From IMG/VR virus record IMGVR_UViG_3300028920_000023: 64,000 bases of DNA, one strand, 5' to 3'. Positions 5,290 through 64,000 of this stretch are shown piece by piece. Position 1 is the first letter of the stretch. Each line of letters begins with the position of its first letter. Under the pieces are notes generated by a model, which had not been told where the DNA came from, did not search any database, and was given only the letters and a program-made list of their open reading frames with translations. The stretch is from a virus. Lineage: Duplodnaviria; Caudoviricetes. Both the position numbers and the translations under genes were made by a program.

Positions 5290-5607
5290 ATGCCTCAGCA
5301 ACTAGATCTAACTTGGGTTCTGTACGACAAAAATTCAAACCATTACTTACTTCTATATTTAGGAGAGGCAGAAGGCTACACCATAGCCATCGACGCACGT
5401 AGAGCAACACCAAGAGATACTATGATAATCCGAGCCAACCTAAACCACCTGAGAAGAACCAATCTAGAAACCGTCCTAGAATGGGTAAAGAAAGAATTAC
5501 CCGACCTATATAACAACGCAGTAAAGAAATTCAAAACAAACCAACTTATTATAAAGAAAGAATATTCACTTTCTCAAATTGATTCTATTAAGAAGACGAG
5601 TAAGTGA
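5290..5607 (+). CDS. Hypothetical protein
   Basis: 105 aa ORF filling the gap between two minus-strand genes; A/C-ending codons like other + genes. Confidence 0.6.
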   Translation: MPQQLDLTWVLYDKNSNHYLLLYLGEAEGYTIAIDARRATPRDTMIIRANLNHLRRTNLETVLEWVKKELPDLYNNAVKKFKTNQLIIKKEYSLSQIDSIKKTSK

Positions 5608-6588
5608 GCCAGCATTCAAATTATACACATTATTCTCAATATAAGACCTAGACGAACCAGGACACTCACTGTCCATATCGTTCCAATCAATATCTGGGTC
5701 CGGAGGAATAGAATAAGCCAATTTCCTGACCTTATCCCTAAGAACAAAATAATTCTTCTTAATAGACAAAATACCAGCCTCATCAGCATCCGGAGCCAAA
5801 ACCACAAGACCAGACTCAAAAGAAACCAACTTCTTAACCTGCAAACTATTACGCGACATCATAGCACCACCAGTAGCCACACAATCACCACCAATACCCA
5901 AACAATTAAAAATAGACTCAACAACAACCACCGACTCACAACCATACTCCACATTATCAAAACCATATAAAAAATCAGACTTAGACAAACCAGTCACAGA
6001 CTCATCAGGAAAATTAAACCTCTTATTCATAACAAACCTCTCCTGCCAATAAACCAAATCATCATACTCAAAATAAGGAAAAACAATAGTAGAAGGAGTA
6101 TAATACAACCTATTCCTGGAAATCACATCATCAGAAACACCACGACCATACAAATACCGCCTATACGCCCTCTCCAACTTCTTCCCAGAATCACCAAACT
6201 CCTGACTATGTTCAGGGAGCTTCAAATGCTCCTGCGGCTTTTCATCCTTCTCCTTTTTAAGGTCCCTGATCCTATTACGCTGCAACAACCTCCTAGCAGC
6301 ACTAGGCGCACCACCAACATCAGCCAAAGCCTTATAATACGACAAATTCTTATAATTCATTACAAACTTAATAAAAGAACCATCATAATCCTGATGTTTA
6401 GGACGGAAATCATGCACCCAATTTGATACAATACCACGTTTATTCTCTTCAGCGATCAAATTAATATAAAGATTAAACCGTTTATCGCCATCCGGATTAC
6501 AAATACGCAACTGAGTCTTATTCTTCGAATACTTATATTCGAAATGCCTAGATACCCAATCTTCAATTTGATGAGCTTCTAACTTCAT
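5566..6588 (-). CDS. DNA primase (DnaG/T4 gp61-like, TOPRIM)
   Basis: IVFPYF, FLYGFD, VVVVES (TOPRIM Glu), VATGG and APDADEAG (DxD) motifs. Confidence 0.8.
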   Translation of the reverse strand: MKLEAHQIEDWVSRHFEYKYSKNKTQLRICNPDGDKRFNLYINLIAEENKRGIVSNWVHDFRPKHQDYDGSFIKFVMNYKNLSYYKALADVGGAPSAARRLLQRNRIRDLKKEKDEKPQEHLKLPEHSQEFGDSGKKLERAYRRYLYGRGVSDDVISRNRLYYTPSTIVFPYFEYDDLVYWQERFVMNKRFNFPDESVTGLSKSDFLYGFDNVEYGCESVVVVESIFNCLGIGGDCVATGGAMMSRNSLQVKKLVSFESGLVVLAPDADEAGILSIKKNYFVLRDKVRKLAYSIPPDPDIDWNDMDSECPGSSRSYIENNVYNLNAGSLTRLLNRINLRK

Positions 6589-6606: not shown

Positions 6607-9333
6607 CTAAGAACACTTAGAACTACCACAATCTTGACAAGTCCTACAAGTGCCCTCAAACTTCACATTACTACTACCACAATCAGTACACTTAAACGAA
6701 CCCTTAGCTTCCTTAGCATCAATATACTCAGTCAAAGCCCTCGCAATAGCCTTAGCAAACGACGTAACCGTCTCCTGAGACTTCAAAATCTGATCAACCA
6801 CAAACTCAATAGGAACACCATGCCTCAAAGAAGTAGAAATCAGCCTAGTAATAAGAGAAGCAGCCTCATCCTCATACCTATTCAATTGTCTTACAACCAT
6901 GGCACCACTCTCAAATTCATAAGTACCCTTCGCTTCGCCCTTATTCTTATGCTTAATTATATGACCCTTCTGCCTATCTGCAACACCAGCCTGAGCATGA
7001 TCTAAAGCAAAAACCTCGAAAACTCTACCCTTCAAAAACCCAATAAACACCGTATATATCTTACCATTCGGCTTAATCAAACGAACAACCGCATCCAACT
7101 TCCTAGGCCTCTTAGGAGACTTATGGCGCTTAATTTCAGATTCAGATTCGGATTCCGTAACCAAAACACCCTCTCTACTACCATCACGATAGACCGTAAT
7201 ACCCTTACAACCAGCCCTCCATGCCTCCTGATAATAATAGGAAATAACATCAGGCTTGCAATCCCTAGGAAGATTAACAGTATTACTAATGCTCTGATCG
7301 ATATACCTGTTCGTCACGCTCTGTAATCTGATCCTATGCTTCGGATCTACATCATGTGCCGAAATAAAATAATCAGGCAAATCCTCAGTATTATGAATCT
7401 CGCAATATTTCCTAGCAGCTGGATGAAATACGGTATGATGTTCTACCTTCTTTGACGTCCCCAGATTGGTCTTTCTCACATGCTTCATTTGGAATACTGG
7501 CTCTATCCCGGATGAGCATTGGGATATAAGAGAAAGAGAACCCGTAGGTGCTATGGCATGGATGCTTATGTTTCTGAGACCCTCTTTCTCTATTCTCCGT
7601 GTCAATCCCTCTGGGAGAGATTGCATGAATTCAGACTTCATATGGGTCTTGAAATCATAAACGGGAAAAGCACCTTTCTCAACTGCTAAATCACATGACG
7701 CCTCATAACTGTCATGGGCAAAACGGCTCATTACCTCTTCTGTCAATTCTATTGCAGACTCGTCATCAAAACGCATGCCCATCATCAGGAACAGATCAGC
7801 TAGGCCCATGATGCCCAGACCTAGGCGACGTCCATTGTCATTGGCCCATTGTTGGAATTCTTGTGGGGCTTTTTCTAGCGTTATAATATTATCTAGGAAA
7901 CGAACAGCGAGTTTTACATCTGATCCGAATTTATCATAATCGAATTCAGCTTCACTTGAAAATGGATCCTTTACGTATTTGCTCAGATTCATTGAACCTA
8001 AATTGCAGGAATCACCATGGGATAACAACGTTTCACCACAATTACCAATAATTACACCATTAGCAACAAAAGAATTTGTTTTTGGTTCTGTAAGGCAGAA
8101 TGTCTCATCTATTTTAAGATATGAGATAGATATTATTTTGGATTTAAATTTATTGTTATCTTCATAAGACCATAATTCGTCTCCTTTATTTAATTGTAAC
8201 AATTCAATTCTGCTACCATCAGTTTTTATGAATTTATGATTAGAGGTAGCATCTATATAAGAACCATTGTCCAATAATACTCTGAAGATCTTTTCTGATT
8301 TAGAAGTCCTATAAACTCTTGTTGCCTTCCCAGGACCATTAATAGTCATAATATCCAATACCAGACCTTGATCCCTGCTAATATACTCCTGATATTCGCC
8401 TTCTGCCCATAATTGTCTGGCTGTCTTATAACCAGAGTCTGTAAGAATCCTTGTATCACCAGTAATGCAAGGATTTGTAGTAACACACCCAAAACCACCA
8501 TAATGATGCGCCGGCACCGTCCTCTTAACAGTATCCCAAAACAACATACCAGGCTCACCACGCTTCCACGCACGATGAATTATCTCATTCCAAACCTTCC
8601 TAGCAGGGACCGTATCAAACACCTGGCCATTCCACTTCAAATCATACTCTCCGTCATCCTCAACAGCCCTCATAAACTCATCAGTAATCTTAACCGAAAC
8701 ATTCGCATACCGAACTAAATCAAGATCATCACCGCCCTTGATCTTAATGAAATCCATAATATCTGGATGATCAACATCAATCGAAATAAGCAAAGCACCT
8801 ATCCTACCATTCTGACCAATCATACCAGTCACAGTACTGAAAAATTGCATAAAAGAAACAGAACCTGATGACGTCCTAGCGGCATTGTGTACAGGCAAAC
8901 CTTTGGGTCTAAGCCTCGAAATATCGATACCACAACCGCCTCCGGCCTTGTAGGTCTCAGCCATCTTATATGCTGTATCGAATATACCTTTAATGGAATC
9001 TTCCTGAATGTCTATGACGTAGCAATTTTTTAGGGTTATGTTGGCATATGGGTTTCCTAGGCCGTATAAGATTCTTCCACCTGGTACAAATTTGAAATCT
9101 TCTAATAAGTCTCTGAATTTTAATTCAAATTCTTTTTTCAGCTGTTTTATTTCGGCTTGTGATATTGCTTTGGCTAATCTATCCCATAGGTGTTCTGGTT
9201 TATGTTCTGTATATAATTTGGTTTCTGGGTCTTGTAGGAAGTATTTGTCCACTAATATTTTGGCTGCTAGACGGTCTTTTGTTATTGTTTCGCATGTTTT
9301 ATATGCTTCTTCGATGGTGATACCTTCTGGCAT
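6607..9333 (-). CDS. nrdJ: Ribonucleoside reductase, class II (adenosylcobalamin-dependent), intein-containing, with C-terminal TSCPD-like/Zn-ribbon extension
   Basis: FVPGGRIL, CYV, GGGCG, NP-(intein)-CGE, RRLGLGIMGLAD, IAPTGSLS, SSGIEP, KGITVYRDGSR; C-terminal CxxC...CxxC; no beta-subunit gene in the window. Confidence 0.88.
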   Translation of the reverse strand: MPEGITIEEAYKTCETITKDRLAAKILVDKYFLQDPETKLYTEHKPEHLWDRLAKAISQAEIKQLKKEFELKFRDLLEDFKFVPGGRILYGLGNPYANITLKNCYVIDIQEDSIKGIFDTAYKMAETYKAGGGCGIDISRLRPKGLPVHNAARTSSGSVSFMQFFSTVTGMIGQNGRIGALLISIDVDHPDIMDFIKIKGGDDLDLVRYANVSVKITDEFMRAVEDDGEYDLKWNGQVFDTVPARKVWNEIIHRAWKRGEPGMLFWDTVKRTVPAHHYGGFGCVTTNPCITGDTRILTDSGYKTARQLWAEGEYQEYISRDQGLVLDIMTINGPGKATRVYRTSKSEKIFRVLLDNGSYIDATSNHKFIKTDGSRIELLQLNKGDELWSYEDNNKFKSKIISISYLKIDETFCLTEPKTNSFVANGVIIGNCGETLLSHGDSCNLGSMNLSKYVKDPFSSEAEFDYDKFGSDVKLAVRFLDNIITLEKAPQEFQQWANDNGRRLGLGIMGLADLFLMMGMRFDDESAIELTEEVMSRFAHDSYEASCDLAVEKGAFPVYDFKTHMKSEFMQSLPEGLTRRIEKEGLRNISIHAIAPTGSLSLISQCSSGIEPVFQMKHVRKTNLGTSKKVEHHTVFHPAARKYCEIHNTEDLPDYFISAHDVDPKHRIRLQSVTNRYIDQSISNTVNLPRDCKPDVISYYYQEAWRAGCKGITVYRDGSREGVLVTESESESEIKRHKSPKRPRKLDAVVRLIKPNGKIYTVFIGFLKGRVFEVFALDHAQAGVADRQKGHIIKHKNKGEAKGTYEFESGAMVVRQLNRYEDEAASLITRLISTSLRHGVPIEFVVDQILKSQETVTSFAKAIARALTEYIDAKEAKGSFKCTDCGSSNVKFEGTCRTCQDCGSSKCS
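8041..8469 (-). mobile_element. Mini-intein (143 aa, no homing endonuclease) in the RNR active-site NPCGE motif
   Basis: Starts CITGDTRILT after NP; block B ATSNHKF; ends SFVANGVIIGN followed by C+1 (CGE); removal restores NPCGE. Confidence 0.9.
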
Positions 9334-10040: not shown

Positions 10041-10301
10041 ATGGAAACCAAATCGGAAGCCTCCCAAAAGGCAGATTTGAATAAAAAAGAACAGCTATCA
10101 GACTGGGCAGACAAAGTAATAGAAGAATTTAACGAAGTGGCGAAAAAACACAATATAACAAATATGGCGGTAGTATTCACGCATCCAGAAACTCAAACAC
10201 CAGCTGTATCCCAATTAGGACACCCTTACGACGTAGCTAAAATAATGGCAGCAGCAACCAGAGTCCTAAAAAACGAAATAAACAAACAACTAGAGACCTG
10301 A
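10041..10301 (+). CDS. Hypothetical protein
   Basis: 86 aa ORF with GGGG RBS-like element. Confidence 0.65.
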   Translation: METKSEASQKADLNKKEQLSDWADKVIEEFNEVAKKHNITNMAVVFTHPETQTPAVSQLGHPYDVAKIMAAATRVLKNEINKQLET

Positions 10302-11177
10302 TATCCTCTTCCAATAATAAGTAATCTCGTACGAATCAGGATTCCTACTCTTCGCCTTCTTAAATAAAACGTTAAGACGAGTATTATAATAATACTCACC
10401 ACGAAACGTAGACGCATCAGGCTCATAAGAAGAAAAAGAAGCCTGCGCACCACCCAACAACTCAATCAAATGCATAGAATTACCACCAGAACTCCTCTCA
10501 CCACTAACCTCAGACAACTTCTCATAAAAACGCTCAGTATTCCTAAACACCTTCTTAATACTAGGAACACCAACCTCACCAGGACCAATACCCTCAGGCC
10601 TAATAATCTGATCAATAACTAACGTAGGAGAACCAACCGCCTCTCCAGACGAAATACCAGAAGGACTAACCAAACCCTCAGAAACAACAATAGGAGTACC
10701 AAAAGCCTCACCAGAAGAAATACCGGAAACATCAACATAATCAGTACGATGAATAGTAGGCTCACCAAAAGCCCCACCAGACCCAATACCAACCGCAATA
10801 ACCAAACTCTCCGGAAGAACCTCTAGAGAACCAAAAGCCTCAGCCGAATCAATACCAACAACCTCAATAATCTGATCACGAACAACAGACGGCCTTCCCA
10901 CCTGGCCGGGACCAATACCAAAAACATCAATACTAACATTACCCTGTGGCTGTATCCTATATCCAAGAGGAGTCATAAAACCCTGAATACCAGAAGTAAC
11001 ATCCGCATCAGGATTATAAATAGGACCTAAGACGTCAATATTATGTTGACCAATAACTACAGAACTGCCGCCGGGAAAATCGTAAGCGAGCGTAATATCA
11101 TCAACATGAACAACGCCCAACGCCGGGCCAACAGCATCGACCGCAGAAGTTGGCCCCCGCGCAGATAACCCAGCCAT
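10290..11177 (-). CDS. Virion structural protein with GI(S/G)SxEA(F/V)G(S/T)P repeats
   Basis: About 5 imperfect repeats (GIDSAEAFGSL, GIGSGGAFGEP, GISSGEAFGTP, GISSGEAVGSP), typical of phage minor tail proteins; stop/start coupled to the upstream gene. Confidence 0.6.
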   Translation of the reverse strand: MAGLSARGPTSAVDAVGPALGVVHVDDITLAYDFPGGSSVVIGQHNIDVLGPIYNPDADVTSGIQGFMTPLGYRIQPQGNVSIDVFGIGPGQVGRPSVVRDQIIEVVGIDSAEAFGSLEVLPESLVIAVGIGSGGAFGEPTIHRTDYVDVSGISSGEAFGTPIVVSEGLVSPSGISSGEAVGSPTLVIDQIIRPEGIGPGEVGVPSIKKVFRNTERFYEKLSEVSGERSSGGNSMHLIELLGGAQASFSSYEPDASTFRGEYYYNTRLNVLFKKAKSRNPDSYEITYYWKRISGL

Positions 11178-12838
11178 TAGACAACCTCTGGTTTAGGATC
11201 AATGTATAAGAAAGCCCCAGCCTTCCTCTTCGTAAGATGCACACGAACAGGAACAATGCCGGATTGACCAGGAGTAATAGGAAGTTCCAATTTGAAAGGA
11301 GTAAGGCCAGAATCACCAACCCAAGAAGAACCATCAGTTAACAGATCAACAGCAACCTTCGACGATGCAAACTCCCTAGTACCACCAGAAACTTCAGACA
11401 AGTAATCCGTCTCCAAATAAAGATCATCCTGTAAAGGAGGGTCCCCACCATAATTCTTATAAGCACCATATACAACAATAGTAGAAGCAGAAGCAGGAAC
11501 ACTAGCATAAATCGTCTCTAAACCATGAATAAACGGAATCAAACCGAAATAATTATTAGGATCATCAACATCCCCAGAATCCATATCATATTTAAGAGAA
11601 TAAGACTCGCCACCAGTCCGATTCACACTGTTCGTGGAAACAGTACCCTTCGAACCAAAAAACGACCAACTTCCAACAACACCACCAATATCACCAACAA
11701 AAGCACCAAACTCATTCGTACCAAACATCGTACCAACAGACTCAACATTCTGCACAAAATAATGTTGGCCAACACCAGCACTAAAATTAGACACAGAATT
11801 AGTGGCAAACGAGAAATTAGAACCAGTAATAATCACGCCAGCTGAAGACTCAATAGCATAATCAGAATTAACCGCCTGTGTGAAATTTTTAAAATGAATA
11901 ATAGAGCCATGAGTATCCGAATCACTAAGATCAATCTTCCTACAGGAAACAACATCAAGATTATAAATAAACGCCTTACAATCTAATTCCAATATTATAT
12001 TCGAGGTTGATGTGGAAGTAGAAGCATCCGACATAACGCAATCGGCCATATAAACCACAGCAACCAAATTAGTACTTCTGAACATCACCTCAGCCATGGA
12101 AGTATGTTCAGATTCCAAAATACAATTTATGAAATAATATCTTCCTCCACCAGATATTAGCATCTCCCTACCATAAGTATTATCATCGCCAATTTGAACA
12201 ATAGTACAATCCTTGAATACAATCTCGCCAGATGAAGCAATACTATAAACAAAAGCAGAACTGCTAGTAGAGCCAGTCCTCTCCAGAATGCAACTATAAA
12301 AACGAACATCACCGCCAGTAATACGAACAGCACCATCGTAAGTAGCATCCGTATGGAAATAACAATTATAATAAGTAGAATCAATATCTATTATAATATT
12401 CTCAATAGAACTACCTGTGCCAGTACCGCTCACCTCTATTCTATGAAATTCCTGGGAAATACCAGTCTCAACATTCAACAATTGGCCATTAAAACCATCA
12501 GATTCTACGACAGCATATTCGCCGGGATCATCATCCCATAAGGCCCTGGCAACTGCCGGTCTAGTCGCATAGTAGATGTCATCATCTTGATCTGTCCCGG
12601 AAGTGCCACCTGTAGAAGCACCAACAGGCCAACCGACATAAGTCACCCCAACATCAGTGAGCGTTTGTGCCGACGATACAGTAAGCGTTTTGCGTCTAAT
12701 CCATACGAAATCACCATTGTTAAATGATTTTCCGAAGATCGTATTATACGCGCCAGGTTGTCCACCACCGGAAGCCTGGGAAGGAGAAGTGCCATCGCCA
12801 TCGAAAGTGGCACTAAAGTCCACAAAATGATTAGCCAT
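11177..12838 (-). CDS. Virion structural protein, possible beta-helix tail spike
   Basis: 553 aa, Ser/Thr/Gly/Asn-rich with repeated short beta-strand patterns (CYFH, CILE, CTIV, CVMS); N-terminus MANHFVDFSATFDGDG. Confidence 0.55.
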   Translation of the reverse strand: MANHFVDFSATFDGDGTSPSQASGGGQPGAYNTIFGKSFNNGDFVWIRRKTLTVSSAQTLTDVGVTYVGWPVGASTGGTSGTDQDDDIYYATRPAVARALWDDDPGEYAVVESDGFNGQLLNVETGISQEFHRIEVSGTGTGSSIENIIIDIDSTYYNCYFHTDATYDGAVRITGGDVRFYSCILERTGSTSSSAFVYSIASSGEIVFKDCTIVQIGDDNTYGREMLISGGGRYYFINCILESEHTSMAEVMFRSTNLVAVVYMADCVMSDASTSTSTSNIILELDCKAFIYNLDVVSCRKIDLSDSDTHGSIIHFKNFTQAVNSDYAIESSAGVIITGSNFSFATNSVSNFSAGVGQHYFVQNVESVGTMFGTNEFGAFVGDIGGVVGSWSFFGSKGTVSTNSVNRTGGESYSLKYDMDSGDVDDPNNYFGLIPFIHGLETIYASVPASASTIVVYGAYKNYGGDPPLQDDLYLETDYLSEVSGGTREFASSKVAVDLLTDGSSWVGDSGLTPFKLELPITPGQSGIVPVRVHLTKRKAGAFLYIDPKPEVV

Positions 12839-12853
12839 CCCAATCTCCCTGGC

Positions 12854-40886: not shown

Positions 40887-41174
40887 CTAGAATAAAACAC
40901 CCTCATTATCGATACACATAACATCCCGATAATCAATAAAAGCATAATCTGCACGATGTGGATCCTTCCTATCCGGCTCAATAATATGGACAGGACAATG
41001 AAACTCAAAATAAGGACCCTCCTTATTAACCAGGATCCTATCACCAACCTCCAAACCAGAGACACCGCAGCCAATACCGACCACGGTGCCTCTAGAAGCA
41101 TCTCCCTCTGATTCAAGCCTAATCAAGATATACGAGCCATAAGGCTTAACGGGCAATTCATTCTTCATCTTCAT
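40887..41174 (-). CDS. GroES-like co-chaperonin
   Basis: VKPYGSYILIR...GTVVGIG...EVGDRILV...YAFIDYRDVMCI. Confidence 0.75.
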   Translation of the reverse strand: MKMKNELPVKPYGSYILIRLESEGDASRGTVVGIGCGVSGLEVGDRILVNKEGPYFEFHCPVHIIEPDRKDPHRADYAFIDYRDVMCIDNEGVLF

Positions 41175-42210
41175 GGAGTTCAGCAGCAGCCAAACAACCC
41201 TTGCTCACAGCGTGCAGAGGATCCGCAGCATGGCGAATCTCACCAATAGGAATCTGCAAATCATCCTTCTTCCTACCAAATTCTTTCCTCAAAAGATCAA
41301 TAAAACCCTTAGGCATAGAAGTACCACCAGCATTAATAACCGGAACCGGCTCCGGAAACCTCACCTTATCGCGATTCTCATTAAAACCACGAACAATACC
41401 ATTAACAACATTCTCAATCATAATCTCATACATAATCTTAATAGTCTGATCAACCTTATTATCATAATTCATCAAAGACAAATCAATCTTCTGCTTAGCA
41501 TGAGCAATCGTAGTCGGAGTCTCAGCATAATCACCATTCGGATTAGACGGATCATAGCCAAACCGAACAGCCGCATCAGAATCCACCCTATCACCCGCAC
41601 CAACCAAACAAAACTCAAAAATCGGAACACCAGCAAAACCAGCATGCACAGTAATCGTACCAGCACCCCAACTAATCCCAATAGCAGGACCAATCTCATC
41701 TAAAACCAAACACCTAGCCTCATTAATATGAAAAGCACTAATCTTACCACCACCAACAAACTTCTCAACCAACAACTTCACAATCTTCTTATGAAAATCA
41801 ACATTCAAACGCTCATCATTCAAAGCCTTAGCCGTAGTACAATAATACAAAACCGTATCATCCTTCACATCCTGCCCCAACGCATTCATAATAATCGACT
41901 TAACAATAATAGCCATAATCTCCTGAGCATTCTCATCCGTCTTAGAAACACCACCCTCAGCCATCGGGCGCTGTAAAGTCTTATTAAACATATAAGCCAA
42001 CTTCTCAGCCTTAGAGCCAATAGCAATCAACTGATCGCCATAAGGAACATAAGGAACACCCTGTTTCTTAAGAAGATTCTCAGTAAATTTATCACCCCTA
42101 CGCAAATCAATATAACCATTCACCTCATGAATGCTCTTAACCTCACCATCTTCCGTTTTCCAGGACAACACAATGTGCTTAGTACCTAAATCAAGTCCTA
42201 ATCTATCCAT
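41158..42210 (-). CDS. Actin-like ATPase (MreB/ParM/MamK superfamily)
   Basis: Phosphate-1 GLDLGT, connect-1 INEA, phosphate-2 ISWGAGT, adenosine GGTSMPKGF, connect-2 DPLHAVSKG; start MDRLG with GGGAG RBS. Confidence 0.85.
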   Translation of the reverse strand: MDRLGLDLGTKHIVLSWKTEDGEVKSIHEVNGYIDLRRGDKFTENLLKKQGVPYVPYGDQLIAIGSKAEKLAYMFNKTLQRPMAEGGVSKTDENAQEIMAIIVKSIIMNALGQDVKDDTVLYYCTTAKALNDERLNVDFHKKIVKLLVEKFVGGGKISAFHINEARCLVLDEIGPAIGISWGAGTITVHAGFAGVPIFEFCLVGAGDRVDSDAAVRFGYDPSNPNGDYAETPTTIAHAKQKIDLSLMNYDNKVDQTIKIMYEIMIENVVNGIVRGFNENRDKVRFPEPVPVINAGGTSMPKGFIDLLRKEFGRKKDDLQIPIGEIRHAADPLHAVSKGCLAAAELHEDEE

Positions 42211-42235
42211 GATTGGTCTCCCGCTTTTCTTAATG

Positions 42236-42517
42236 TTATTTATTGGTTTGGTCTTGCCCGAGATTAACTTCGGGCGTTTTGAAATTTTCGAACTTATCTT
42301 CGAAGTCCTGTAATCTTTCCTCATCCGTAACGGCTGGAGGAGATTTAATAAATCCTTCTTGGTTATCGTGTGATCCGGATCTATGTTCGGTGATATCGGC
42401 TTTTTCGGAGTTCTTCCCGGAACCATGTGTGAATACGTGAATTTCCGGGACATTAATATTGACCTCCACAACGACTTTAGGAGGCCCCAACAGCCATCTG
42501 AGGAATCTACCTAACAT
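42236..42517 (-). CDS. Hypothetical protein with amphipathic N-terminus
   Basis: MLGRFLRWLLGPP; acidic tail; directly upstream of the actin-like gene. Confidence 0.6.
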   Translation of the reverse strand: MLGRFLRWLLGPPKVVVEVNINVPEIHVFTHGSGKNSEKADITEHRSGSHDNQEGFIKSPPAVTDEERLQDFEDKFENFKTPEVNLGQDQTNK

Positions 42518-43059
42518 CGTCTTATATTTGCAAATATCTTAGAGTACTCCCTAAAATCCTCCTCAAACTCAAACTCCAACCTATCTATCTCAGTAAACGA
42601 CTCACTCGGACTCCTAGAACCATCAGACATAAACCACTGAACAAAAACCTCATAAGCATTCCTACCAACCACAACACCCTTCCTATCACCAGACCTAACC
42701 AAAACAGGAGGCTGCTTCACCTTATGCCTCCTCTCATCCCACAAACCATCTATCTTATTAACATCATCCCCATAATTAACAAGAGCAACAATCCTAGCAA
42801 ACTCATAAGATCTCCTAGGCTTCTCCCTAGACCTACACCACCACCCCTCACCAACATACTTCCACTGCAACTCCTCACCCGTATCAGGACTAGTAAACAC
42901 AAACCAAGAAGTAGGAAACCTACCAATCTTATCAACAAAATCCCCCTCAAAATCAACACCACCCTTCTTATACCTAGAAATAAGCCTCTTACGATCCTCC
43001 TTATAAGGTTCCTCAGGACGCATTCTAGGAACAAATAACTCTCTAGGTCTTCTCTGCAT
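42511..43059 (-). CDS. Hypothetical protein
   Basis: 182 aa; G/T-ending codons like other minus-strand genes. Confidence 0.7.
   Translation of the reverse strand: MQRRPRELFVPRMRPEEPYKEDRKRLISRYKKGGVDFEGDFVDKIGRFPTSWFVFTSPDTGEELQWKYVGEGWWCRSREKPRRSYEFARIVALVNYGDDVNKIDGLWDERRHKVKQPPVLVRSGDRKGVVVGRNAYEVFVQWFMSDGSRSPSESFTEIDRLEFEFEEDFREYSKIFANIRRC
42523..42530 (-). promoter_or_regulatory. Putative promoter motif CAAATATA (within palindrome ATATTTGCAAATAT)
   Basis: 5 nt upstream of the 42517 start. Confidence 0.4.
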
Positions 43060-61544: not shown

Positions 61545-62912
61545 ATGAAAATCATCACCTCAGACGGCACCACAAAATCAGGAATAGCAGGCCCCACAGG
61601 CCCCACAGGCCCAACCGGACCAGAAGGACCACTAAACCAAAACCCAACACTAGAAAGCCTCACCCTATTCAGTTCAGCACCGTCCCTACTCATACAAGAA
61701 GACAATACCTCACCCGGATGGGAATTAACAAGTGATAATGGCAACCTCCAAATAAATAATCTGACAGACTCAACAAACCCACAAACAATACTACAAGCCA
61801 ACACAGAATTATTAACAATAAACGCAGCAACAAGTTTGGACGGTGCAGTAACAATAAACGATTCTGGATCGAATGTAAACTTTAGAATAGCATCAGACGT
61901 ATCAACACACGCATTCTTCATACAAGGCAGTAACGGGAACATAGGAATAAACAATAGCACCCCCGCTAGCAATTCAGGATTTAGTAATGCACTAGAATTG
62001 ACACAAACGACCGATGGTTGGGATCTGATGTTTAACAACCCATCCGCAGGTACGAGCACCTCAATTGGAGCCATAACAGCAAATCGCGACTCTGATGTAT
62101 TAACGGCCTTACTGTTCAGTGCAGATGGCGCGACGGACTCTGGTGTAATGAGATTCTTTACGCAGCCGACTGGCGGTGCACTAACCGAGCGTATGCGCAT
62201 TGACTCTAACGGGAATGTAGGTATCGGGGGCACACCGGTTTCGGACTGGGACGGTCGTTATGCAGTGCAATTTGGTGACAAGGGTTCATTGTCTTCAACT
62301 AAATCTGGCAATCCAAATGTGTATCTTACGGCAAACTTAGCGTTTGATGATCCAAACTGGGAATATCTAAGTGGGTACATCGGCGGAATGTATCAAATAG
62401 ATAGGGGTTGGCACTATTGGTATACAACCACTGATGCCACGCAATCTGCGGGGGCGACAGCAACACTAGCCCAGCGAATGTCGCTAGATACAGGCGGACG
62501 GCTATACCTACCATCCCTGCTCCAAACAACATACTCGGGTTTGACCGTAGAAATTGATACGGCTAATGGCGGACTATACGTCGAAACAAGCACGAGAAAG
62601 ACAAAGACGAATATTCGGGATGTTGACGGTAAAGCGTGGAATGACATCTATTCTTTGCGTGTTAGGTGTTTTGATAGTCTGGATGGGAAGCATAACGGTA
62701 TGGTCGGCCTTGTGGCAGAGGAAGCCGCACAGATCAACCCTCGGTTTGTAGTGTTTGACGGCGAAGGCGCGCCACTAGGCATCGATAGGAAGAACATACT
62801 ATATGCGCTCGTGAAGTGTCAGCAGGACCATAGAGGGAAGTTGCAAACGGCAAAAGCTAAGGTGCAAGAACTCGAGTCCCGCATCGCAGCATTGGAGGCA
62901 GCGAATAACTAA
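61545..62912 (+). CDS. Tail fibre protein with collagen-like start and S74-like chaperone
   Basis: Shared N-module; MRIDSNGNVGIG; STRKTKTNI...GLVAEE...IDRKN...ELESRIAALEA. Confidence 0.85.
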   Translation: MKIITSDGTTKSGIAGPTGPTGPTGPEGPLNQNPTLESLTLFSSAPSLLIQEDNTSPGWELTSDNGNLQINNLTDSTNPQTILQANTELLTINAATSLDGAVTINDSGSNVNFRIASDVSTHAFFIQGSNGNIGINNSTPASNSGFSNALELTQTTDGWDLMFNNPSAGTSTSIGAITANRDSDVLTALLFSADGATDSGVMRFFTQPTGGALTERMRIDSNGNVGIGGTPVSDWDGRYAVQFGDKGSLSSTKSGNPNVYLTANLAFDDPNWEYLSGYIGGMYQIDRGWHYWYTTTDATQSAGATATLAQRMSLDTGGRLYLPSLLQTTYSGLTVEIDTANGGLYVETSTRKTKTNIRDVDGKAWNDIYSLRVRCFDSLDGKHNGMVGLVAEEAAQINPRFVVFDGEGAPLGIDRKNILYALVKCQQDHRGKLQTAKAKVQELESRIAALEAANN

Positions 62913-62984
62913 TGCTCGGTCACGGCACCATTGTTGATAAAAGCAGAGCTTGAAGCTCGTATTATAGCTTTAGAGGCGCAGTAA
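62913..62984 (+). pseudogene. In-frame remnant of an alternative tail-fibre chaperone C-terminus
   Basis: Immediately after the TAA the same frame reads CSVTAPLLIKAELEARIIALEAQ*, matching the LIKAxxEL...LEARIxALE ending of S74 chaperones. Confidence 0.6.
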
Positions 62985-63013
62985 TTTACAAAACACCTCT
63001 CGCCGTATATAAA
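62985..63013 (+). promoter_or_regulatory. Sigma70-like promoter
   Basis: TTTACA (62985-62990), 17 nt spacer, TATAAA (63008-63013). Confidence 0.55.
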
Positions 63014-63019
63014 AGCACA

Positions 63020-63665
63020 AGTCTTTAGAAAGGCAGCCACGCGACAATCCCCGCTGGTATAGGAGCGTGTGGAGACGCACATTGTGCGTTCGTTGGACTT
63101 TAACTAACGCAGCCTCGGGGGTCTTCAGCAGAGACGCTGTCGTAAAATCCCAGTAAGACGGAGGCCCGCCAGTAAATCTTAGATTCTATAGCTGGCACAA
63201 CTTAACGCATAACCATTATGGTGAGGACCAACCTGGCAACAGGAAGGTTTCCAGAAAGCAAGGACTTTCTGGGCGGATGAGGGCCTTTGCTGGGTCACAA
63301 CCACAAGACAAGATCTTGACCGGTTGCGATACAAAGCACCCGTTGAGGAGACAAGAGAACAACCGCCAACAAACCACGCTAATCCCGAGTGGTTAATAAC
63401 GGCTCTTGAGCCCTCTGCGCACCACCAAAACCAAACAGGAGGAAACACAAGCCTATCAGCAACAACAAAATACCGACATGCTGTCAAAACACAACAAAAC
63501 AACAGCTAACCGCGCAACAGCACAGCCAACAAACACAAAACAACAGCAAACCAAAAAACAGCAAACGGCACGCTACCACGAAAGTAGGCTTGTAAGAATC
63601 TGTTTGGGAAAAACACCAAAATAGCCAAAGAAAAAGAAACATATCACGTCAGAATTTTTCTTGGT
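63020..63665 (+). ncRNA. Candidate large structured non-coding RNA (family unassigned)
   Basis: Multiple hairpins with GNRA/CUUG loops and G-U pairs, a 10 bp long-range helix (63447-63456 with 63584-63593), no convincing ORF, upstream promoter. Confidence 0.5.
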
Positions 63666-63773
63666 TATTGTTTTATGGGGGGCGGATGCGGATGCGAGGG
63701 AGAATCTCTATCCCAAATACAATTGCACAATGTGCACACTAGACAAACACCCACCAAAAGATAAACAAACAAC

Positions 63774-64000
63774 ATGAACGAACATAACACAAACCAACCA
63801 ATACACCTCAGCGGCGGCTCCAAACATTGGGCCGCCAACAGCCCAATCGCCAGCAAATACCTAGAAAACAAAGACAATAGCAAAAACATAAAACAAATGA
63901 ACAAATATGCAAACATCCTAGACAGCATACTGCCCAGAAAAAAGCCACATAACGCAGAACTCTACGCAAAAGAAACACAACTCAACGAACGAGAAAAACA
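63774..64000 (+). CDS. Hypothetical protein, partial (runs off window)
   Basis: MNEHNTNQPIHLSGGSKHWAANSPIASKYL..., open to 64000; A/C-ending codons as in other + genes. Confidence 0.55.
   Translation, partial: MNEHNTNQPIHLSGGSKHWAANSPIASKYLENKDNSKNIKQMNKYANILDSILPRKKPHNAELYAKETQLNEREK

Follow-up and report, generated by a model that had tools for sequence, protein, structure and literature searches.

A candidate family of large structured non-coding RNAs in huge uncultured phages

The locus examined here raises the question of what occupies an 861-nt gap (62913-63773) between two genes of a huge uncultured phage. The stretch analyzed, hereafter the window, comprises 64,000 nt of this phage and carries a split DnaE, an intein-bearing ribonucleotide reductase and collagen/RCC1 fibres. 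The 5' neighbour of the gap is a tail-fibre gene (61545-62912, + strand) with a C-terminal S74 chaperone domain, while the 3' neighbour is a + strand gene that begins at 63774 and is cut by the window end; in the identical contig L003 it is whole, starts with ATG, encodes a 200-aa coiled-coil protein and is followed by a gene for a 603-aa protein. A preliminary description, made from the letters of the window, had read the gap as lacking a credible gene and as holding a novel large structured non-coding RNA. The first point was borne out, as no credible open reading frame and none longer than approximately 100 aa was found in any frame of the gap (table 11, table 4, or TAG read as Q), the longest stop-free frames had no Pfam match, and conservation of a reading frame across the homologues described below is absent. 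Six-frame peptides of the eight family sequences gave only short mutual matches, spread over all frames of both strands with no consistent open frame, as nucleotide conservation predicts. The gap folds better than its shuffles, and does so more clearly on the + strand (z = -4.0) than on the - strand (z = -2.55), which taken alone is weak evidence; a self-blast against the whole window revealed no repeat of it elsewhere. The second point was supported by covarying homologues together with the lack of an Rfam match and of a conserved frame: positions 63020-63714 (+) are probably the gene of a new family of large structured non-coding RNAs, encoded as a stand-alone unit.

Homologues and extent of the RNA gene

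Homologues were sought by nucleotide, protein, and pattern searches. A blastn search of the gap against 50,697 phage records gave no match, an exact 25-mer from hairpin Hh (see below) had none in viral contigs, and an exact look-up of the 455-aa fibre protein returned no record. The shorter called form of the fibre protein retrieved only contigs L002 and L003, which are 100% identical to the window and hold no usable variation, and the fibre, 200-aa, and 603-aa proteins used as single queries in viral contigs gave one weak locus or none. Homologues of the 603-aa protein were recovered at 28-53% identity and their contigs were examined for the RNA. With the gap as query, nhmmer matched intergenic DNA of L004 and L005, and their alignment revealed a near-invariant 25-nt word (GTCGTAAAAYCCCARTARGAnnGAG); a pattern scan with this word yielded L008 (viral contigs) and L009-L013 (metagenomes), while the GC-rich L020 came from loci that an alignment of the 603-aa family had retrieved and that were then searched with a profile. 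In L014 (Xenorhabdus) and the viral contig L028 only the search word matches, and both were set aside as chance occurrences. The family thus assembled has eight distinct sequences (the window, L004, L005/L013, L009, L012, L008, L011, and L020), that is, the window RNA and seven diverged homologues, all of them in metagenomic huge-phage contigs and known only in huge phages of sediment and marine origin that form a small clade. Their central domain is 56-63% identical to the window at the nucleotide level, and a single copy of the RNA is present in each of two IMG/VR contigs (~100 kb each) that were searched whole.

Profile and alignment matches span the window RNA end to end (63020-63714, +, ~700 nt). 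Most relatives are ~480-520 nt long, and the window copy is the longest because of two lineage-specific expansions. Since no terminator-like site was found after its 3' end, the limits of the RNA were placed from conserved features: the 5' end from an upstream box, and the 3' end no earlier than the terminal GCGGAUG words and the last hairpin. The box, CGTATATAA (63004-63012, +; family consensus CGTATMTAA), resembles a promoter -10 region and in all eight members precedes the first conserved helix by 8-50 nt. Its word GTATNTAA shows no enrichment in the rest of the window and is therefore no general promoter word of this genome. The claim that the RNA has its own promoter, a TTTACA (62985-90) placed 17 nt upstream of TATAAA, stood in part: the -10-like TATAAA is part of the box, which is conserved in 8/8 members, whereas the TTTACA is not conserved in the family and the 63004-63012 site was not listed by a sigma-70 consensus scan. 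From this conservation, transcription would start at the CGTATMTAA box just upstream of the RNA. In subfamily B another conserved box, AAGUAUUUAAG, lies between the RNA and the next gene; in L004, L009, and L012 it sits ~30-40 nt upstream of the start of an 84-aa gene, resembles the GTATMTAA upstream of the RNA, and may serve as another promoter of that kind.

Predicted structure and covariation

The family was defined by the CGTATMTAA box, a pseudoknot formed by the loop of helix Hb, the junction GUCGUAAAA, and a bulged long-range helix around hairpins Hf-Hi, and further by the word GCGGWU, which occurs at both the junction and the 3' end and pairs with CAnCCGU; window positions 63004-63714 have all of these features. 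Comparison of the sequences indicates that a three-domain secondary structure is conserved and has been kept through many compensatory changes. All helices listed in the preliminary description are present in the sequence where it had placed them; their fate in the family differs by domain.

The most conserved core is the central domain (63126-63294, +, R1 alignment of all members), which that description had mostly missed. It opens with hairpin He (63126-39), followed by the near-invariant purine-rich junction GUCGUAAAAU and by the 5' strand of a long-range helix of 14 bp with a conserved 5-nt bulge (63149-56/63287-94 and 63162-67/63281-86; CCCAGUAA/UUGCUGGG plus AGGCCC/GGGCCU). Within this helix lie Hf (63168-73/63191-96, with a conserved 17-nt loop), Hg (63213-21), Hh (63227-48, capped by the GNRA loop GCAA in the window and by GCAA or GCGA in the family), Hi (63251-72), and the junction word GCGGAUG (63273-79). 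Hh and Hi had been described beforehand and are conserved in the relatives with compensatory changes.

For the central domain, a covariance model (R1) was seeded with three subfamily-B sequences only, its structure was read from them, and Infernal was used to align all members. In the resulting alignment 97.1% of 314 cells are standard pairs and 32 of the 43 pairs have changes on both sides, values to be read with the caution that only eight distinct sequences are available and that alignments fitted to a model favour that model. None of 500 shuffles reached any of five measures, and when the partners were slid by 1-3 columns as a control, 35-43% of the cells were paired, with 5-7 covarying pairs. 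L020 alone contributes three long-range-helix pairs changed on both sides, and the window copy scores 72.8 bits (E 2.8e-17) against this model, which was built without it. Cells with G-U (20) far outnumber those with A-C (4), which shows that the window + strand is the folded one and that selection acts on RNA and not on DNA palindromes. Covariation among homologues had been named beforehand as a test of the RNA reading; homologues exist, and covariation is strong in their central and 5' parts.

The 5' subdomain (63037-63120, +) consists of Hb, a pseudoknot, Hc, and Hd, and the order of these helices is identical in 8/8 members despite different letters. Hb pairs CCACGCG with CGUGUGG (63037-43/63066-72), Hc is the hairpin CGCAC-AUU-GUGCG (63076-80/63084-88), and Hd pairs CGUU with AACG around a conserved 11-nt loop (63091-94/63106-09). 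The helices proposed earlier for this part, GUGUG-GAGA-CGCAC (63067-80) and GCGUU/AACGC (63086-110), can be formed, but the family keeps the Hb, Hc, and Hd pairings instead. In a model-fitted alignment of seven sequences 10/10 Hb pairs are changed on both sides, and 93% of the cells of Hb, Hd, and He together are paired, a value reached by 0/500 shuffles and to be set against 30-41% in slid controls. The Hb-loop pseudoknot (+) is probable on comparative grounds: in the window the loop word CCCCG (63049-53) faces CGGGG (63116-20), and family-wide a 4-6-nt word of the Hb loop pairs with the nucleotides just before CUUC. Shuffling the loop reproduces a Watson-Crick run as long as the observed one in only 1.4-7% of cases, depending on the lineage (window, L008, L020, and the subfamily-B sequences), while in L011 the pseudoknot depends on a G-U pair and is uninformative in this test. 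A model of the 5' subdomain seeded with subfamily B (R2) missed subfamily A with default filters and detected it at E 0.001-0.06 with the filters off; because of this weakness, Hc and the pseudoknot were not formally counted in common columns and rest on scripted checks.

In the 3' domain the relatives provide the plan. Independent minimum free energy folds of L008 and L011 give one architecture, made of hairpin Hj, a closing helix, a long helix, and the terminal hairpin Hm, and the long helix carries two small hairpins. Hj (63298-63326, +; CAACC..CAAGA-CAAGA-UCUUG..GGUUG) has the loop CAAGA in common with L008 and L011, where it reappears in the independent folds, its stems being different. 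The 5' strand of the closing helix, CACCCGU (63337-63343, +), has as its partner the terminal GCGGAUG, with the junction word at 63273-79 as an alternative; it lies 39-44 nt past the long-range helix in all members and forms 6-7 of 7 pairs in 7/7 full-length ones, and it covaries, the third pair U-A of L008, L011, and L020 being replaced by A-U in L009 and L004. The two small hairpins at 63372-94 and 63401-12 (+) have positional counterparts in L008 and L011, and the helix enclosing them is uncertain in the window. The long hairpin Hm (63431-63607, +) is built from CCAAACAG/CUGUUUGG (63431-38/63600-07) and ACAAGCCUAU/GUAGGCUUGU (63447-56/63584-93); L008 and L011 have a long hairpin in the same place, without the 127-nt A/C-rich expansion that forms its tip in the window. 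Our placement of the window's internal 3'-domain helices is tentative. The pairings that the preliminary description had given at 63372-94, 63401-12, and 63447-56/63584-93 exist in the sequence and have only positional counterparts in the folds of L008 and L011.

The 3' domain has an interior of 345 nt in the window against 112-153 nt in most relatives. The tip of Hm shares the A/C skew of the genome (the window + strand is rich in C and A irrespective of gene orientation), and the earlier remark that the stems resist an A/C drift to which the loop yields is consistent with a lineage-specific, unconstrained expansion of the loop. Three ACAAAACAACAGC-like direct repeats, spaced by 41 and 15 nt, lie inside this expansion (63494-63578). 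The hairpin that had been noted at about 63625 is present as Hn (63625-63664, +; CCAAAGAAAAAG..UUUUUCUUGG), as a window-specific expansion with no counterpart in the relatives. The 3' terminal motif GCGGAUGCGGAUGCG (63682-63714, +) contains two overlapping copies of the word and then a small hairpin (63698-63714); AUGCGG(A/U)U is found near the 3' end of 7/7 full-length members and is duplicated in L011 as in the window. As a separate observation, two near-palindromes of 11 nt, GCACATTGTGC (63077-63087) and GCACAATGTGC (63725-63735), are exact reverse complements of each other; the first lies inside hairpin Hc, the second 10 nt past the last hairpin of the RNA, and neither is seen in the relatives. 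Operator-like sites are one possible reading of the pair, a long-range pairing of the 5' and 3' parts another.

A repeat search pairs 63271-82 with 63680-91, that is, the junction word (63273-79) recurs as the terminal word (63682-94; GGGCGGAUG in the window). Both copies are GCGGAU in subfamily A but GCGGUU in subfamily B, and the single complementary strand CAnCCGU changes along with them. Because the copies switch from A to U together with CAnCCGU, this strand would have two alternative pairings, either a pseudoknot with the junction copy, which stands at a distance of 1 nt from the long-range helix's 3' strand in the geometry of an H-type pseudoknot, or a helix with the terminal copy that closes the 3' domain. 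The terminal word of subfamily B is also able to form a local hairpin. The duplicated word with its concerted change thus offers a concrete and testable hypothesis of an RNA switch.

Comparison with known RNA classes

The preliminary description had named an Infernal/Rfam scan as a check, and the RNA matches no known family: with Rfam 15 (4227 models, 6S and SRP RNA among them) no match reached the gathering score in the whole window, none was found at E <= 10 between 62800 and 64000, and nothing overlaps the element at E <= 5 in five relatives. A search of the literature found no description of this RNA family; a catalogue of candidate structured RNAs from IMG/VR, whose motifs average 67 nt (PMC10690425), was not compared by sequence. 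Several known classes were considered and rejected. ARAGORN found neither a tRNA nor a tmRNA in the 64-kb window. For RNase P RNA no Rfam model matches; the junction GUAAAAUCCCAG superficially recalls CR-I, and it differs from P4 in that its A-rich stretch is unpaired and its 3' strand is followed by a further domain of 200-400 nt. Group I and II introns were discarded for lack of a model match, with the flanking genes complete and the RNA of the relatives lying between divergent operons, and IscB/TnpB guide RNAs, retron RNA, and DGR template RNA were set aside because model matches or the partner genes were lacking.

Membership in GOLLD or ROOL, which had been raised as a possibility, was not upheld, as their Rfam models (RF01998 and RF03087) do not match, and the parallel holds only at the level of a large ornate phage RNA. 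Like the present RNA, both are phage-borne, at least 500-700 nt long and rich in helices, pseudoknots, and GNRA loops, and are non-coding, apparently stand-alone genes; unlike it, they have a different helix plan. GOLLD and ROOL often adjoin tRNAs, whereas no tRNA genes are found near the window RNA. Both have been resolved by cryo-EM as RNA-only multimeric assemblies (bioRxiv 10.1101/2024.12.08.627333).

Other large RNAs resemble it in part. OLE, raiA, and HEARO are likewise large, with strong covariation and highly conserved unpaired junctions, but they are bacterial or mobile-element RNAs with known partners (OLE with OAP, HEARO with IscB), while the phage RNA matches no such model and no specific partner gene travels with it. 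Riboswitch leaders with mutually exclusive pairings share the arrangement of one strand, here CAnCCGU, with two or three identical possible partners (GCGGWU), but the phage RNA is several times larger, has no recognisable expression platform, and precedes different downstream families. ColE1 RNA II and the T4 origin transcripts are, like it, promoter-driven structured RNAs (~550 nt) beside replication genes; unlike the case for these, no skew switch or origin signature and no antisense partner was seen at the phage RNA, and its conserved tertiary-type structure exceeds the needs of priming.

RNAs of at least 500 nt with such a density of conserved helices and pseudoknots are rare, and those with a known role are almost all ribozymes, ribonucleoprotein cores or, lately, RNA-only cages, so that a further unrelated class would extend a short list of large natural RNA folds. 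The present one is confined to uncultured huge phages, at the junction of a replication/actin-like operon and a fibre-like gene, and its short versions of ~480-520 nt in the relatives make a defined target for cryo-EM and probing.

Genomic context and competing readings

The RNA of L008, L011, and L020 occupies the gap that separates two divergent operons. One of them holds an unknown gene of 203-241 aa, an actin-like gene of the Volactin family, and then the split DnaE; the other begins with the 603-aa family gene, and the RNA is directly upstream of it on the same strand. In L004, L005, L009, and L012 the orientation of the RNA to the 603-aa gene is reversed, and the RNA precedes an 84-aa gene and DnaE. 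The window retains parts of the first arrangement at a distance, with an actin-like gene at 41158-42471 (-; Pfam Volactin, E 3.5e-41), 54% identical to its counterparts in L008 and L011, and upstream of it a conserved 182-aa gene of unknown function (42511-43059, -), ~30-34% identical to the counterparts in the same contigs. Co-directional with the split DnaE, these two genes may form a genome-segregation or cytoskeletal module. A block of ~20 kb (43.1-62.9 kb) with fibre, RCC1-fibre, glycosyltransferase, and sulfotransferase genes separates the 182-aa gene from the window RNA, unlike in L008 and L011, and as homologues of the genes of these contigs stand at 41158-43059, the block is best read as an insertion beside the RNA. 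The ancestral place of the RNA would then be the gap from which the actin-like/DnaE operon and that of the collagen-like 603-aa gene diverge. Other contigs have the 603-aa family without the RNA; related phages with the same neighbours and no RNA indicate that some lineages can do without it. No partner protein was found that co-occurs specifically with the RNA.

Different lineages have different genes downstream of the RNA (the 603-aa family in L008, L011, and L020, the 200-aa coiled-coil gene in the window, and the 84-aa gene followed by split DnaE in L004, L009, and L012), which argues that the RNA stands alone and is not the leader of one gene. Size and complexity, the RNA's own conserved box, and its inversion relative to the neighbours favour the same reading. 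If so, the RNA would act as a fold in its own right, as a scaffold of an RNA-protein or RNA-only assembly or as a ribozyme. By analogy with the large RNAs discussed above, one can go further and tentatively picture a new class of large catalytic or self-assembling huge-phage RNA with a conformational switch, acting in trans on replication, segregation or virion assembly; this more specific role is possible, though we would not call it probable.

The same neighbourhood can be read in another way. A same-strand gene follows the RNA at 8/8 loci with no terminator-like site in between, so the RNA could be the 5' part of an mRNA and serve as a very large cis-acting leader, in which the choice of a GCGGWU copy by CAnCCGU would set the transcription or translation of the downstream operon. 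The three word copies that compete for one strand and change together between the subfamilies would suit such a device, as would the local hairpin available to the terminal word of subfamily B. Against it, the three downstream families are unrelated, the spacer between the RNA and the start codon is unconserved (~50 to ~190 nt), no Shine-Dalgarno or terminator element is visibly sequestered, a length of 480-700 nt with ~17 helices is far beyond known leaders, and in subfamily B the AAGUAUUUAAG box intervenes between the RNA and the next gene. We regard a cis-acting leader as the main alternative, although a rather unlikely one.

Control of replication or segregation, with the locus as a structured pre-primer (as in ColE1 RNA II or the T4 origin transcripts), an origin or a centromere near the DnaE and actin-like genes, appears improbable. 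In all relatives the RNA does lie in the divergent gap beside the actin-like and split-DnaE operon and near SbcCD-like and helicase genes, L019 has direct repeats in place of the RNA, and the window expansion contains the three ACAAAACAACAGC-like repeats; but the GC skew keeps its sign at the RNA site, selection is on RNA pairs including G-U and not on DNA repeats, the window RNA is 20 kb away from the replication genes, and the RNA strand of the expansion is A/C-rich, a composition that would be unfavourable to a stable R-loop. At the corresponding place L019 has a gap of 612 nt, which was rejected as a homologue of the RNA; its long direct repeats (~60-nt units, 5359-5970), at the RNA's position in L020, may be an iteron or centromere-like array.

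That the gap holds no functional RNA, only debris of a tail-fibre cassette exchange or foreign DNA with chance hairpins, is very improbable. Right after the TAA of the fibre gene, 23 codons in the same frame (CSVTAPLLIKAELEARIIALEAQ, 62913-62984) run up to a stop and resemble the gene's own end, KVQELESRIAALEAANN; cassette exchange has probably left here the remnant of an older fibre C-terminus, and a readthrough extension is less likely. The segment ~61900-63420 lacks the strand skew of the genome, as newly acquired DNA would, whereas 63420-63650 shows it in extreme form, and the distal part of the last fibre gene looks as if newly acquired on the same ground. Both observations would fit debris, but the element recurs in seven other contigs with no fibre gene adjoining, its pairs are kept through compensatory changes, which contradicts chance hairpins, and tblastn of the small genes flanking the 603-aa homologues gave no match in the gap and hence no trace of a pseudogene. 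A small protein is hardly credible: a 72-aa frame (63406-63624), annotated by a gene caller in the identical JGI contig, and a 107-aa frame on the - strand (63179-63502) are both open and an AGGAGG occurs at 63439-44, but the 72-aa frame falls in the window-specific expansion, is absent from all relatives and has the low complexity (Q, T, K, N) expected from A/C-rich sequence, the AGGAGG is 34 nt from the first ATG, and neither a frame conserved across the family nor a Pfam match was found.

Some features of the neighbouring genes deserve mention beside the stand-alone RNA gene that we favour. The 603-aa gene (L003, 4577-6388) encodes a short collagen-like Gly-X-Y run, a Cys-rich block, and a long poly-Ser tail and has no Pfam or PHROG match. 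In most relatives the neighbours of this conserved family are replication genes (SbcCD-like, helicase); in L026 a baseplate gene (Tail_P2_I) precedes it, and in L021 it reaches 2281 aa. In L015 a helicase gene (ResIII/Helicase_C_2; 10167-12848, -) is split by an intein with a LAGLIDADG endonuclease, and the ribonucleotide reductase of the window (6607-9333) also carries an intein signal.
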